64,000 nt of DNA from an uncultured bacterium (GTDB taxonomy: Bacteria > Chloroflexota > Anaerolineae > Anaerolineales > UBA4823), in the NCBI GenBank assembly GCA_965603285.1, contig CBFDCK010000002.1, positions 410 to 64,409 on the forward strand. The letters are read 5' to 3'. Shown one piece after another: positions 55,686-59,372 of the stretch (the stretch's first letter is position 1; the number at the start of each line of letters is the position of its first letter). The notes below the pieces were generated by a model. It was not told the origin of the DNA, did not search any database, and saw only the letters and a program-made list of their open reading frames with translations. The position numbers and the translations under genes were made by a program.

Positions 55686-58600
55686 CTATTTATTTTCTTT
55701 AGTTAAATCATCAATTGCTTCTTTAGTTCTCCTTAAGCTCTCCGGATGCCGAAGCACGACGATGTTCGCGCCAGATTCAATCAACATAACAGAGGTGAGT
55801 GTCTCCCATGTGATCGCTCTTTCGAGCCATTCTCCCCATTCCTCTGGAACACCCTGTCCAACCTTCGATTCTTTTGCTTTCCAGCATTCTTGACCAGGGG
55901 TTAATAGCATCGGCATTTGAGTCATGCTGTCCCCTTGGAGAGCAGCCAATCTCAAGCGCTCCATTACCGAATAGCCATATTCAAACCCATAGCCGAGTGC
56001 ACCGGTGGTCGGATCCATCACAATTTGATCCAGCGGTAAACCCATGTCGCTAATCAGGATATTAAGCTGTTTGGCTAAATTAACGTCCATTGCTGTACGA
56101 GCATCAACGAGATGACCATTTGCCATCGCAGCAGCAACAATTGTACGATAGTTTTTATCTTCACACACACCCAACAGCAAACGTTCACCGCTGAATGCAT
56201 CCGCAATCGGAACGAGAAACTCATTATCAACATCTGCTTGACCCGGACCAAATACAATCAATGGGAGACCGCTAGATTCAAGGACAGACCCGACTGTGTT
56301 TACCGCGTTATCGGCTGTACTTGGATTGCCATCCCTGTCTGTCACTGAGAGGTCCAACATGAGTAATTCTGCACCTGCCTCTTCGGCAGCTTTTGCCCAT
56401 TGGGCGGGCTCATCTACCACTGAACCCCATTCGTCTAGTAGGAGTTGGGACCAATCCTCTGGACGGCGGTCATTGATCTCGATTGCAAGAACAGGTTTGT
56501 TTGGCATTTCACCTTCAAAATCCATGAAAGGCATTGCCGTTTCACCACCCACAACTACTTTCCTCGTCCGGGTACCACCCTCTTCCTTTGTAGCTCCAAG
56601 AGTTACTTCCCTAACCTGACCGTGCCACTGCTCTTTCAAGATTTCCGTCTTCGTGTCCTGTTTGAGCCAGGGTTTATCGGGGGGAAGTTCAAGTACTTTT
56701 TTTTCAGTCTTCCCCGTAACGGATGGTGGAGGAGCCTCCGGCGCGGCTGAAGGTGGTGCCATGGGAGCAGTTGGCGCACCTGGAATTTGCAGAGTTAATG
56801 TATCAATACCACCCAGCTCTGCCAGGGCGGCTATCAATGCCCTTCGCAGCATTTCAACTGCTCTCTCTGCCTTGTCGACCGGTTCAGCGCTCACTTCTAC
56901 CACAGGTGGTACAGCAGCCGTAGCAACCACTACTTCAGGCTCTGGTGCTGCCTCAACTATTTCTGGTGTAGTGGTCTCCTCAACGACTTCGTGTTCTTCT
57001 TCGGTAGGATCTTCAGCTTTCTCAATTGCAGCTTCCACCACGGCTTCAGCCTGTGCGATCGTCACTTCAGCAGGTTCTGGCTCTCTGTCAGATTTTGCTT
57101 GCATCGGCTCCATCTTCAGAACTGGGTGATCTTTCTCATTAACCCAATCAATTAATTCTTCTACAGTTGTGACAGTATTTCCATCGGCAATACGTTCGAT
57201 CAAATCGGGAACACCTTCCCTGACTGCGCTGGCTTGAAATTCAGCAGCCATGGTCTCTTTTAGTACACTGCTCATCCAAACAACACGCTTGAAGCCCCCA
57301 TCTGCGGAGATGAACTTGGGGCTGATCAAATAAAACTTGCCAACACCCATAACCCCAGGCGTTTGCAAACCACCACCGGCGATACCAGCCAAAGTGCTGA
57401 AAGTCATCCCAGCTGGTGTCATACCTATGTCTTCTCGACTGACTATCATCACCCCGTTTAATTCCGGAATTACCATAACGATGCACTCGAAGCAACCACA
57501 AGCAGTCATCGGATTTTCCATGATTGAGTACATGGAAACTTCTTTAACTACTCCATGAGAACCAACTTTGGCATAGTCATTTGTCCCTTCCCAGTAACCC
57601 ATTTCCACGTCTATGGGCTTCCCCAGTTTAATTGGCTGATTGGGTCCGGTTGGATTAATGCTGAAGGACGCTTTACAGTCCAACCAATTGTATGCCCCAC
57701 ATAAACCTAATCGCTCTGGGCTTACCACACATACATGGTCCGGTGCGAAGGACTGGCACAAAGTGCAGGAATAGAATTCATCCACTTTATTGTCGGTTAA
57801 ATCAGATAAACGACGGTTGCGGAAGTCGTACGATTCCCGAGCTTTCGCCAACCACTCCTGGATTTTTTCGGGGTCGGTAAATATCGTTACCTGTACTTTG
57901 TCCACGATAGCACCAAAGTCGTTCTTGAATCGAGCGTGCAAAATCTTGCCAAAATGCTCAAGGTTAAAACCTTTCTCAGCCGCCCCATTCGATATTCTTA
58001 TCCAGGCGATGTCACGTTGACCAATGTGCTGTATTCCAGATGCGCCATTTATAAAGTAATGCACTTGGCGTTCGAGCACCGGTTCGAAATCATCTTGCAT
58101 CTGTCTTCCAGCTACTTTGACGATAATCCCCATATCGATGCTGCCCTTAGGTTCAACATCCTCGAATCCCGGACCGATGACTTCAACTTTGCCATCCACA
58201 ACTTCATCTAATGGAGCCATATACAGGTACTCAACACAGCGCGAGTATTTTCCACCAAACTCAATGCGCATATCATTTTTCCGGACTACCTCTCCCTCAA
58301 AAGCAGAGCCATAGGGAACCGGAACTGGAACTTCCGCCAATTTGATCTTTACACCCCGGATTTCAATGCACTTTTGCACCAATCGCTCCGCTCTCTCCAG
58401 ATCGTCTTTGCCTTCAATTTCTTCAAAAGGCATCGAGACAACATGTTCGTACGTGGTGACTCCAGTAGGCAGGATCTCAGGGATGACCGTGTCGGCGATG
58501 ACAGGAAAACCGTAATTGATCGCGCCTGCCGCAGCCGCGTATTTCAGATCATCCACTTCGCCCAACGCTAAAACAAAAGCAAAAACGCGTTCCTTGTTGT

Positions 58601-59372
58601 AGAGCAAGATTTCACGTGCCTGACCTGCTTTTAATCCACCAAAGGTAAGAGCCGAGCGAGTTGCAAAGCCTATTGCATAAATTGCGCTCATCGTATCTGT
58701 GCCAAATGGAACCGTATAAGTGTCGTACCCAAGCTCAACACCTTCTTCCATCAACTGGTGGATGATACTGCGACCATTTACATTTCCTGAAAGGAAGGTA
58801 AGGATATTGCGTTTCTGTAATTCGCGTACAATTTGGACTGCAACTTCGTTTGATTTAGCTGCTCCAACAATTGCAGCAAAACCAGGCATACGACCATCAA
58901 CCAGTTGAATGCCCCACGAACGCAGTTGAATATCATCAATCGGACCGTTCAAATGCCCCCCATCCATCCCGGTCCCATTATCAGAGTATACGGTACCTCC
59001 CGCCAACTCGAAACCCGCCATCGGCTCTGGTTGAAGACCGTAAATAAATCTAATGGCTTCAATCGTTTCAGCAGCTAGCAATGTTGCCATCCCGCTATCT
59101 AATGTTTCACCAAGATAAGGGGTCCAATGTTTTTCGGAAGGTAACGGATGCAGGAGCTGGCGTGCTTGCTGCAGGACAGGTTCCAATTCACCTAAAGATG
59201 TGACTTCCCGACCTGTCATGCCAAATATCGTCGGTAAGAAATAACCTGTGTTTGGGAAAGCAACCGGCGTGTCTGGTCCCTTTTCGGACAAAGATTTTTG
59301 AAGCATTAATTCGGCTTCGGTGACCAGCGCGTTTGATCCCCGGATTGCACGTGTTGCTATATAACGAGACAT
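55686..59372 (-). CDS. acsB: Acetyl-CoA synthase (AcsB) fused through a long low-complexity linker to the corrinoid Fe-S protein small subunit (AcsD)
   Basis: 1228 aa. The AcsB part carries the A-cluster cysteines (CTLCQSFAPDHVCVVSPERLGLCG and ACGCFEC). A ~150-aa Pro/Ala/Glu/Val-rich linker is encoded at about 56640-57100. The C-terminal ~320 aa match AcsD/CdhD (VTLGATKEEGGTRTRKVVVGGE, KQLNILISDMGLPLDQIVMDPTTGALGYGFEY, MERLRLAALQGD). Confidence 0.9.
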   Translation of the reverse strand: MSRYIATRAIRGSNALVTEAELMLQKSLSEKGPDTPVAFPNTGYFLPTIFGMTGREVTSLGELEPVLQQARQLLHPLPSEKHWTPYLGETLDSGMATLLAAETIEAIRFIYGLQPEPMAGFELAGGTVYSDNGTGMDGGHLNGPIDDIQLRSWGIQLVDGRMPGFAAIVGAAKSNEVAVQIVRELQKRNILTFLSGNVNGRSIIHQLMEEGVELGYDTYTVPFGTDTMSAIYAIGFATRSALTFGGLKAGQAREILLYNKERVFAFVLALGEVDDLKYAAAAGAINYGFPVIADTVIPEILPTGVTTYEHVVSMPFEEIEGKDDLERAERLVQKCIEIRGVKIKLAEVPVPVPYGSAFEGEVVRKNDMRIEFGGKYSRCVEYLYMAPLDEVVDGKVEVIGPGFEDVEPKGSIDMGIIVKVAGRQMQDDFEPVLERQVHYFINGASGIQHIGQRDIAWIRISNGAAEKGFNLEHFGKILHARFKNDFGAIVDKVQVTIFTDPEKIQEWLAKARESYDFRNRRLSDLTDNKVDEFYSCTLCQSFAPDHVCVVSPERLGLCGAYNWLDCKASFSINPTGPNQPIKLGKPIDVEMGYWEGTNDYAKVGSHGVVKEVSMYSIMENPMTACGCFECIVMVIPELNGVMIVSREDIGMTPAGMTFSTLAGIAGGGLQTPGVMGVGKFYLISPKFISADGGFKRVVWMSSVLKETMAAEFQASAVREGVPDLIERIADGNTVTTVEELIDWVNEKDHPVLKMEPMQAKSDREPEPAEVTIAQAEAVVEAAIEKAEDPTEEEHEVVEETTTPEIVEAAPEPEVVVATAAVPPVVEVSAEPVDKAERAVEMLRRALIAALAELGGIDTLTLQIPGAPTAPMAPPSAAPEAPPPSVTGKTEKKVLELPPDKPWLKQDTKTEILKEQWHGQVREVTLGATKEEGGTRTRKVVVGGETAMPFMDFEGEMPNKPVLAIEINDRRPEDWSQLLLDEWGSVVDEPAQWAKAAEEAGAELLMLDLSVTDRDGNPSTADNAVNTVGSVLESSGLPLIVFGPGQADVDNEFLVPIADAFSGERLLLGVCEDKNYRTIVAAAMANGHLVDARTAMDVNLAKQLNILISDMGLPLDQIVMDPTTGALGYGFEYGYSVMERLRLAALQGDSMTQMPMLLTPGQECWKAKESKVGQGVPEEWGEWLERAITWETLTSVMLIESGANIVVLRHPESLRRTKEAIDDLTKENK

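Follow-up and report, generated by a model that had tools for sequence, protein, structure and literature searches.

The best described relatives of the locus studied here are the bacterial CODH/ACS systems of Moorella thermoacetica, Carboxydothermus hydrogenoformans and Clostridium autoethanogenum, in which the acetyl-CoA synthase (AcsB) and the small subunit (AcsD) of CoFeSP, the corrinoid iron-sulfur protein, are separate polypeptides. A cryo-EM study reports docking of the small subunit of CoFeSP on the ACS domains A1 and A3, together with a movement of A3 over more than 37 Å (bioRxiv 10.1101/2024.08.05.606187). In the archaeal ACDS (CdhABCDE), CoFeSP is oligomerised by a coiled-coil helix at residues 45-68 of CdhD, within an otherwise disordered N-terminal region, and CdhC has been proposed to bind to it by way of its own disordered C-terminus (Zimmer et al. 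2026, bioRxiv 10.64898/2026.07.07.736967); hexa- to octameric oligomerisation through that helix is a mark of an ACDS-type assembly.

The window, a stretch of 64,000 nucleotides from an uncultured Anaerolineales bacterium, has an operon in the order acsA, acsB-D, acsC, RACo, acsE (Table 1). It shares with the three bacterial systems the five functions AcsA, AcsB, AcsC, AcsD and AcsE with their domain folds, including an AcsB of the A1-A2-A3 type, the cysteine spacing of the A-cluster, an AcsA-type CODH and an AcsD that matches end to end, and both RACo and AcsE are encoded in the operon. Unlike in those systems, AcsB and AcsD are a single polypeptide, the gene order is acsB-acsD-acsC, and the two modules are joined by a linker of 151 aa, carrying two conserved helices, for which those systems have no counterpart.

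Anatomy of the fused gene

The fused gene is one open reading frame (55686..59372, minus strand) that starts with ATG and runs for 1228 aa uninterrupted by stops, and the predicted polypeptide has a size of 135 kDa. Four Pfam domains are found on it (CODH_A_N at aa 23-110, CdhC at 350-504, ACS_CODH_B_C at 515-757 and CdhD at 922-1208), in a layout of AcsB (aa 1-757), linker and AcsD (aa 909-1228).

Table 1 Features of the acs operon, with positions in the window
Feature	Position	Strand	Basis or remark
acsA, Ni-CODH catalytic subunit, directly upstream of the fusion	59398..61416	-	Prismane domain; TIGR01702 603 bits, cutoff 478
Whole fused gene acsB-acsD	55686..59372	-	1228 codons + stop; ORF list, four Pfam domains
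AcsB module, aa 1-757, acetyl-CoA synthase domains A1-A2-A3	57102..59372	-	NF040764; PDB AcsB chains
Cys536-x2-Cys539-x8-Cys548-x9-Cys558, putative [4Fe-4S] ligands of the A-cluster	57699..57767	-	invariant in 117 homologues
Cys625-Gly626-Cys627, Ni-Ni ligands of the A-cluster	57492..57500	-	positions read; invariant in 117 homologues
Linker, aa 758-908	56649..57101	-	151 aa; A 17%, E 17%, P 14%, V 11%
Conserved helix H1, aa 771-785 (TIAQAEAVVEAAIEK)	57018..57062	-	A775 in 116/117, A777 in 115/117 sequences
Conserved amphipathic helix H2, aa 833-857 (DKAERAVEMLRRALIAALAELGGID)	56802..56876	-	alignment conservation, AlphaFold2 helix
Pre-barrel motif LPPDKPW, aa 896-902	56667..56687	-	D899 in 113/117, W902 in 116/117
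AcsD module, aa 909-1228 + stop, CoFeSP small subunit (TIM barrel)	55686..56648	-	NF003376; 4DJD_D
acsC, CoFeSP large subunit, directly downstream	54268..55599	-	FeS domain + CdhD-type barrel; NF003195 517 bits
RACo, reductive activator of CoFeSP	52281..54230	-	Fer2, RACo_linker, RACo middle and RACo C-terminal domains
acsE, methyl-THF:CoFeSP methyltransferase	51343..52266	-	Pterin_bind domain; NF005719 215 bits

The N-terminal module scores 950 bits with the AcsB equivalog NF040764 (NCBIfam, cutoff 800), aa 10-757 covering profile positions 1-704 of 705, and aa 11-757 match the PDB AcsB chains 1RU3, 7ZKJ, 1MJG and 6YTT to within 1-3 residues of the C-terminal end. Both A-cluster cysteine signatures reported earlier are present (C536, C539, C548 and C558, then C625-G626-C627). 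Their spacing of 3/9/10/67/2 equals that of the Moorella AcsB ligands Cys506/509/518/528/595/597, and by analogy with that enzyme the first four cysteines would be the [4Fe-4S] ligands. The equivalog score, the ligand motif and the A1 domain (CODH_A_N) together with the adjoining AcsA-type CODH all place the module among bacterial AcsB proteins. It is not of the ACDS type, which has a CdhC without A1 and a CdhA/CdhB-type CODH; the acsA product scores only 80 bits on the cdhA model versus 603 on TIGR01702.

The C-terminal module reaches 371 bits with the delta-subunit model NF003376 (NCBIfam, cutoff 280) over aa 909-1224, and in the comparison with the Moorella CFeSP small subunit (4DJD_D, 323 residues) aa 910-1226 correspond to its residues 4-320. 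It is thus a CoFeSP small subunit with a complete barrel and its AcsC partner gene alongside, but not the separate polypeptide of ~310-440 aa that AcsD or CdhD otherwise is. No second acsD was found within the window.

The preliminary description had reported a single 1228-aa frame holding a full AcsB and a full AcsD, without stop or frame change between them, and this is borne out by the Pfam, NCBIfam and PDB sequence matches and by the uninterrupted frame. An assembly or frameshift error joining two separate genes, against which a check had been advised, is effectively refuted: the identical 3687-nt gene (0 differences) was also assembled in three JGI metagenomes, the frame is preserved in more than 230 distinct fused relatives from NCBI, JGI, ENA and Logan (at least 117 in family F1 and at least 120 in family F2, described below), and the linker has conserved in-frame elements peculiar to it. 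The best 120 database relatives are all 1150-1723 aa long and all have the identical four-domain set. No support for an artefact was found, and the fusion is confirmed as genuine, with both modules complete.

Distribution and origin of the fusion

The fusion, whose rarity had been left to a database survey, is not rare but common among uncultured bacteria, and is found in two large fused families spanning many phyla. Family F1 is from Chloroflexota/Anaerolineae and includes the window gene. The named sources of family F2 (P0122 and P0301-P0419) include Planctomycetota, Lentisphaerota, Spirochaetota, Desulfobacterota, Aminicenantes and KSB1; its members have 45% identity to the query and the same four Pfam domains. 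The F2 locus L045 has acsA, acsB-D, acsC and RACo as in the window, followed by DUF3786 and an S-methyl_trans gene where the window has acsE. Two long AcsB-like matches, P0123 and P0145, were rejected as further fusions, as they are AcsB with inteins and AcsD is absent. Other subunit fusions, AcsA-AcsB and Pyr_redox_2-AcsB, occur in the enzyme family, and the related long-read MAG locus L002 has an interruption near the N-terminus, away from the AcsB/AcsD junction. The preliminary description knew of no characterised example, and full-text searches of the searchable literature found none either, nor any description or test of an AcsB-AcsD (CdhC-CdhD) fusion. The possibility raised there that the fusion is common and already described holds in its first part, while no published description was found.

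Neighbor-Joining trees of the AcsB module and of the AcsD module alike gave the monophyly of all fused proteins a bootstrap value of 0/100, whereas F1 together with unfused Chloroflexota, and F2, each obtained 100/100. That the F1 linkers are homologous to those of F2 was rejected (hhalign E=0.46, with reversed-sequence controls the same or better). The bootstrapped trees of both modules and the non-homologous linkers indicate that the fusion arose at least twice independently.

In unfused Chloroflexota clusters (for example loci L005, L013, L016, L022 and L029, the tblastn best-segment identity of unfused Chloroflexota to the query being 73-83%), the order is likewise acsB-acsD-acsC. Their acsB ends in “...HPAL.MDPIF” or “...MPPLL” before the stop, acsD starts with “MPIEIPKEKW” after a gap of ~0.1-1.6 kb, and the linker, H1, H2 and LPPDKPW are all missing. 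Such clusters prevail among the GTDB Chloroflexota representatives (~24 unfused versus 5-6 fused loci). Since most close relatives have separate, adjacent and linkerless genes, the F1 fusion is a derived minority state, and since they do the same job with these genes, it is optional or dispensable.

The linker and its conserved elements

The preliminary description had placed a low-complexity linker at about 56640-57100, a position confirmed at 56649-57101. The composition is indeed rich in Ala, Glu and Pro, but the linker also contains two strongly conserved amphipathic helices and the LPPDKPW motif. The conserved residues of H2 (L842 in 117/117 sequences, L846 in 116/117, A849 in 117/117, L850 in 114/117 and G854 in 115/117) are confined to a 120-degree arc of the helix. 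The H2 motif was found in fused genes only, and unfused AcsD, with its different start, does not have LPPDKPW. The spacers between the three elements are Pro/Ala/Glu-rich and freely variable, with linkers of 132-247 aa across the F1 relatives and of 104-266 aa over F1 and F2, the shortest in F2 being 104 aa. The near-invariance of H1, H2 and LPPDKPW, set against freely varying spacers, indicates selection on the linker itself. A layout of disordered spacer, amphipathic helix and disordered spacer is common to F1 and F2, and some F1 members carry an extra Gln/Ala-rich helix.

An AlphaFold2 model of the linker alone predicts H1 (pLDDT ~71) and H2 (pLDDT 70-91) as two helices in a chain without a globular fold (pTM 0.23). 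The model of aa 30-1228 gave no confident docking of these helices and was unusable for interdomain geometry (mean pLDDT 66, AcsB itself poorly modelled); its alignment was shallow, with all sequences at least 72% identical. No known domain or solved structure was matched by the linker in Pfam, NCBIfam or PDB, and a Pfam search of 25 linkers at E up to 1 found neither a PSBD (E3_binding) nor a lipoyl/biotinyl domain. No homology was detected between the linker helices and the N-terminus of archaeal CdhD or the C-terminus of CdhC: the linkers alone had no match at E up to 10 to delta- or beta-subunit profiles, including the delta N-terminal region. In hmmscan of whole F2 proteins the alignments extend into the linker, but that of aa 783-1158 of the F2 protein P0334 with profile positions 45-426 is a run-on from the barrel match and hence not independent evidence. 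The 46-aa M. acetivorans CdhD peptide (from Zimmer et al. 2026), used as protein query, had a 79-aa protein as its sole match.

As in the archaeal ACDS, disordered regions at the ACS C-terminus and the small-subunit N-terminus would hold ACS and CoFeSP together, the link being non-covalent there and covalent here, and in both, a helix (here H2) is embedded in the disordered stretch that precedes the barrel of the small subunit. The position of the helices is analogous, without sequence similarity to delta-subunit N-terminal profiles. In the E2 swinging arms of 2-oxo-acid dehydrogenases, Ala/Pro-rich linkers flank a small helical subunit-binding domain. The fused protein resembles these in its flexible Ala/Pro/Glu-rich spacers around short helices and in a tethered carrier which would visit several active sites; it differs in that the families are unrelated, E3_binding is not matched and a whole TIM-barrel subunit, instead of a small cofactor domain, is tethered.

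A probable tether for CoFeSP and alternative readings

The likely function of this genuine fusion is that of a flexible tether of ~150 residues, which keeps CoFeSP beside the ACS domain where it docks. The AcsD barrel would pair with AcsC, the corrinoid and [4Fe-4S] subunit from the neighbouring gene, so that every ACS arm of an (AcsA)2(AcsB-D)2(AcsC)2 particle would permanently carry a whole CoFeSP on its tether. The Pro/Ala/Glu-rich spacers, predicted to be disordered, would form a long leash with a reach of ~10 nm and a sub-millimolar effective concentration, both rough estimates. Such a leash could set a 1:1 stoichiometry and hold CoFeSP near, while permitting it to dock on A1/A3 for methyl transfer, to come off again as A3 closes on A1 to deliver CO, and to visit both AcsE, where it would be re-methylated, and RACo, where it would be reactivated; H1, H2 and LPPDKPW are putative interaction elements. 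The earlier suggestion that a tether could take the place of transient docking stands in part: tethering fits the reported docking of the small subunit on A1/A3 (bioRxiv 10.1101/2024.08.05.606187), but it can only raise the partner's local concentration and cannot replace docking. The large domain motions are still needed, which fits the absence of linkers below 132 aa in F1 and below 104 aa in F2.

Against a benefit from tethering, the unfused close Chloroflexota relatives mean that the fusion is dispensable and could be nearly neutral. It may then have arisen when acsB lost the stop codon that separated it from the adjacent gene, the two proteins already cooperating (a Rosetta-stone fusion), with a linker that needs only a non-interfering length and brings no kinetic or assembly benefit. 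The greater number of unfused acsB-acsD-acsC loci and the other subunit fusions known in the enzyme family agree with this, yet we regard it as unlikely, considering the selection seen on the linker, the shortest linker still being 104 aa, and the two independent fusions of convergent layout, each of which lasted through a large radiation. Cleavage of the linker after translation, giving an ordinary separate AcsB and AcsD, is very improbable. Exposed disordered linkers are protease-sensitive and limited proteolysis resolves the archaeal ACDS into subcomplexes, but no protease gene and no recognisable cleavage motif were found, conserving helices would serve no purpose in a spacer that is thrown away, and no internal start codon is conserved near the AcsD module, where position 894 is V/I/A in the F1 alignment and a conserved Met is absent.

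A tentative reading, compatible with the tether and additional to it, is that the helix found in both independently fused lineages is an assembly hub: H2, perhaps with H1, might self-associate or dock a partner such as AcsE, RACo or AcsC, giving a higher-order complex of tethered CODH/ACS-CoFeSP units, which would correspond in bacteria, with a covalent link, to the archaeal ACDS. It is suggested by the CdhD helix within its disordered N-terminal region (bioRxiv 10.64898/2026.07.07.736967), by the position of H2 ~50 residues ahead of the barrel with its invariant Leu/Ala stripe, by the long amphipathic helix which F2 independently has at the same place in the linker, and by the extra Gln/Ala-rich helix of some F1 members; moreover, the termini joined here are the two proposed to interact in archaea. 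The linkers alone, however, match no delta-subunit N-terminal profile, PDB or Pfam entry, the extended P0334 alignment adds nothing independent, and the AcsA-type CODH with an AcsB retaining A1 makes a scaffold unneeded for CODH-ACS coupling.

In the source annotations the fused proteins go under “acetyl-CoA synthase” or “subunit alpha/beta” alone, while fragments go under “delta”. Pipelines assigning one function per gene may therefore score acsD/cdhD as missing and the pathway as incomplete, which may affect many MAGs of Anaerolineae, Planctomycetota, Aminicenantes and others. Wood-Ljungdahl enzymology is currently asking how the bulky CoFeSP locates ACS, departs from it and is methylated again. 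For cryo-EM and kinetics, a natural covalent ACS-CoFeSP fusion with conserved helices in its tether, which evolved twice, supplies a stoichiometric complex ready for use, and it lets one test directly if methyl transfer is limited by proximity. In evolutionary terms, the fusion bridges the loose bacterial organisation and the permanently assembled archaeal ACDS. If the helices do act as a hub, the bacterial CODH/ACS plus CoFeSP would become a permanently assembled, ACDS-like machine, convergent with the proposed archaeal scaffold, and would provide a naturally tethered system for studying the shuttling of CoFeSP between methyltransferase and ACS.

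The fused gene and its surroundings

The AcsB module fills the first 757 residues of the fusion protein, within which the Pfam domains CODH_A_N (aa 23-110), CdhC (350-504) and ACS_CODH_B_C (515-757) all lie, and the CdhD domain follows at aa 922-1208. Of the NCBIfam models, the AcsB equivalog NF040764 aligns over its whole length with aa 10-757 (950 bits vs a cutoff of 800), and NF003376, the model for the delta subunit, covers aa 909-1224 (371 bits vs 280). In the PDB, crystallised AcsB chains align with aa 11-757 up to 1-3 residues from their C-terminal end, and the Moorella CFeSP small subunit (323 residues) aligns through its residues 4-320 with aa 910-1226. 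The A-cluster cysteines are Cys536/539/548/558 and Cys625-Gly-Cys627, with the same spacing as the Moorella ligands. Since the reading frame, domain, PDB, cysteine and linker data agree, the preliminary description of AcsB joined to AcsD in one ORF, with its coordinates, was correct. The assembly error it had considered is not borne out: the exact protein is already present in NCBI, JGI and ENA, an identical copy of the 3687-nt gene occurs in three JGI metagenome assemblies, and the best 120 relatives (68-94% identity, 1150-1723 aa) carry the four Pfam domains of the query in 120/120 cases, with linkers of 132-247 aa and the reading frame kept in all. The fusion is not an artefact.

Features of the window in and around the acs cluster
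Feature	Position	Strand	Remarks
RACo-type activator gene, upstream copy	62242-63828	-	528 aa
HMA-fold (CopZ-like) protein	61417-61818	-	133 aa
acsB-acsD fusion	55686-59372	-	single ORF, 1228 codons
Linker (aa 758-908)	56649-57101	-	Ala-, Glu-, Pro- and Val-rich
RACo-type activator gene, second copy	52281-54230	-	
panB (ketopantoate hydroxymethyltransferase)	50284-51138	-	directly downstream of acsE, same orientation
ORF after acsE and panB	48922-50190	-	422 aa; no match in Pfam or NCBIfam
Glu/Leu/Phe/Val-dehydrogenase-like protein	47031-48905		624 aa; C-terminal CBS domain
URO-D-family protein	45078-46319	+	near ABC transporter and sugar-kinase genes
URO-D-family protein	40547-41698	+	near ABC transporter and sugar-kinase genes

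The gene order on the minus strand is a short RACo-like gene, the HMA-fold gene, acsA (Ni-CODH), the fusion, acsC, RACo, acsE and panB, and no second acsD was found within the window. Names given to members of the protein cluster and to related genome loci point to an uncultured Anaerolineales (Chloroflexota) bacterium as the source. The acs cluster has a RACo-type corrinoid activator gene on either side; the one upstream is without a RACo_linker domain and scores 267 bits, far below the AcsV cutoff of 800. The HMA-fold protein, whose stop directly adjoins the acsA start, carries MYGDHH in place of the usual metal-binding CxxC motif and could be a nickel chaperone. The 48.9-64 kb part of the window, considering ORFs no shorter than 100 aa, encodes no CooC/AcsF-type ATPase, in contrast to two at L045, a locus of the second fused family (F2) described below. 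PanB uses methylene-THF. The URO-D family includes MtaA/MtbA-like methyltransferases, and the pair present here hints at further methyl-group metabolism.

Distribution and origins of the fusion

Two fused clusters of full length, P0121 (66% identity to the query) and P0122 (45%), were found among the 1.84 billion representatives of a library clustered at 50% identity, beside several junction-spanning fragments. Used as a query in turn, P0122 retrieved a second large family (F2), whose best 120 matches (1148-1319 aa) were fused in 120/120 cases and whose named sources include Desulfovibrionaceae, Phycisphaerae, Tepidisphaerales, Lentisphaerae/Victivallales, Spirochaetota, Aminicenantes, KSB1 and Chitinivibrionales. 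The F2 locus L045 reads CooC, CooC, acsA, acsB-D, acsC, RACo, the acs arrangement being that of the window. Given the two clusters, the size of F2 and the many named source groups, the AcsB-AcsD architecture is widespread, and far commoner than had been supposed, the best 120 matches of F2 and of the query's own Chloroflexota/Anaerolineae family (F1) all being fused. No description of it was found in the searchable literature, a coverage outside which one key phylogenomic study (Adam et al. 2018) lies, so that the earlier remark of knowing no characterised example holds as far as that literature goes. One possible reason why the architecture has gone uncharacterised is that its named sources are nearly all MAGs.

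The query also retrieved loci from GTDB species representatives, and in most of the Chloroflexota among these the two genes are separate neighbours: an acsB of 754-765 aa ending in '...HPAL.MDPIF*' or '...MPPLL*', followed after 0.1-1.6 kb by an acsD of ~318 aa starting with 'MPIEIPKEKW', and then acsC. Only loci L001, L002, L006, L027 and L038 are fused, the truncated L004 probably also. None of the linker elements occurs in the unfused proteins, and the motif of the second linker helix (H2) was found only in fused genes. Judging from these sequences, being fused is a derived condition in Chloroflexota, and an optional one. The fused gene of L002 (8001-11683; MAG of isolate MFD09779, presumably a long-read assembly) is broken towards the 5' end, where a 79-aa ORF precedes an 896-aa stop-to-stop segment. 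The break probably reflects an indel error or a pseudogene, and the acsB-acsD junction is intact. In the Anaerolineales MAG locus L020 (8001-10280), acsA and an unfused acsB (759 aa) precede unrelated genes, and neither acsD nor acsC was found downstream of acsB within the locus.

Neighbour-joining trees of each module (100 bootstraps) never united all fused proteins (0/100 for both AcsB and AcsD). F1 together with unfused Chloroflexota, and F2 alone, were each recovered in 100/100 replicates of both trees, and F1 alone in 84/100 (AcsB) and 48/100 (AcsD). Profile-profile similarity between the F1 and F2 linkers was not above that of reversed-sequence controls. The simplest reading is that F1 and F2 represent two separate fusion events. 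As unfused Chloroflexota relatives have acsB and acsD side by side, F1 arose by fusion of such neighbours; the unfused clade L003-L013 is either sister to F1 or the product of secondary fission.

Other variants were seen among the homologues. In P0054, P0123, P0145 and P0286, AcsB is interrupted by inteins that contain LAGLIDADG endonuclease domains and sit precisely at ligand cysteines of the A-cluster: at 'MTA|C...N|CGCFEC' in P0054 (an F1 fused protein, 1723 aa) and at 'SCTL|C...N|CQSFAP' in P0123 and P0145. Subunit fusions besides AcsB-AcsD also occur in the CODH/ACS family, namely CODH(AcsA)-AcsB in P0136 (1375 aa) and the intein-bearing P0286 (1894 aa), and Pyr_redox_2-AcsB in P0129 (1024 aa).

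Anatomy and possible role of the linker

The linker had been described as low-complexity, but it is not uniform: the 117 F1 sequences compared share three conserved islands. The helix H1 (aa 771-785) has the consensus VIAQAEAVVEAA, with A775 in 116/117 and A777 in 115/117 sequences. H2 (aa 833-857; consensus DRAERAVxxLRRALxAALAELGG) has its conserved residues (L842 and A849, 117/117; L846, 116/117; G854, 115/117; L850, 114/117) all inside a 120-degree helix arc. The third island is the LPPDKPW motif (aa 896-902; W902 in 116/117). The Pro/Ala/Glu spacers between them vary freely in sequence and length, and some F1 members have an extra long Gln/Ala-rich helix. AlphaFold2 run on the linker only gave helical H1 (pLDDT ~71) and H2 (70-91) and no globular fold (pTM 0.23); the near-full-length model showed no confident docking of anything, and confidence for H1 and H2 was lower than in the linker-only one. 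F2 linkers share this layout, although their amphipathic helix is longer and ends in '..EIV..II.TLS.KFLG', and no match to the elements of either family was found in Pfam, NCBIfam or PDB.

Cryo-EM of the C. autoethanogenum enzyme reported the CoFeSP small subunit docked on ACS domains A1 and A3, an ACS hyper-extension needed for CoFeSP entry, and an A-cluster shift of >37 A during the cycle (bioRxiv 10.1101/2024.08.05.606187). Placing AcsD on the C-terminus of A3 links two parts in contact during catalysis; were the connection short or rigid, the closed state would be blocked, and so would access to AcsE and RACo. Linker lengths, which do not fall below 132 aa (F1) or 104 aa (F2), are consistent with this. 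We infer a leash that would impose 1:1 stoichiometry and a high local CoFeSP concentration, with the domains still mobile. Because its helices are conserved, we argue that the linker does more than this, a putative further role being partner binding or self-association.

For archaeal ACDS, Zimmer et al. report that CdhD has a disordered N-terminus containing a coiled-coil helix that oligomerises CoFeSP, and that the disordered CdhC C-terminus is its proposed binder (bioRxiv 10.64898/2026.07.07.736967). These are exactly the termini joined in the fusion, whose linker has a helix at the place corresponding to the CdhD helix, whereas its ACS retains the A1 domain and the CODH beside it is of the AcsA type. 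Profile searches found no sequence homology between the linker helices and the ACDS regions, and the resemblance is architectural only. The AcsB-AcsD fusion is real, conserved and recurrent, and is a novel form of a known system rather than a system of a new kind.
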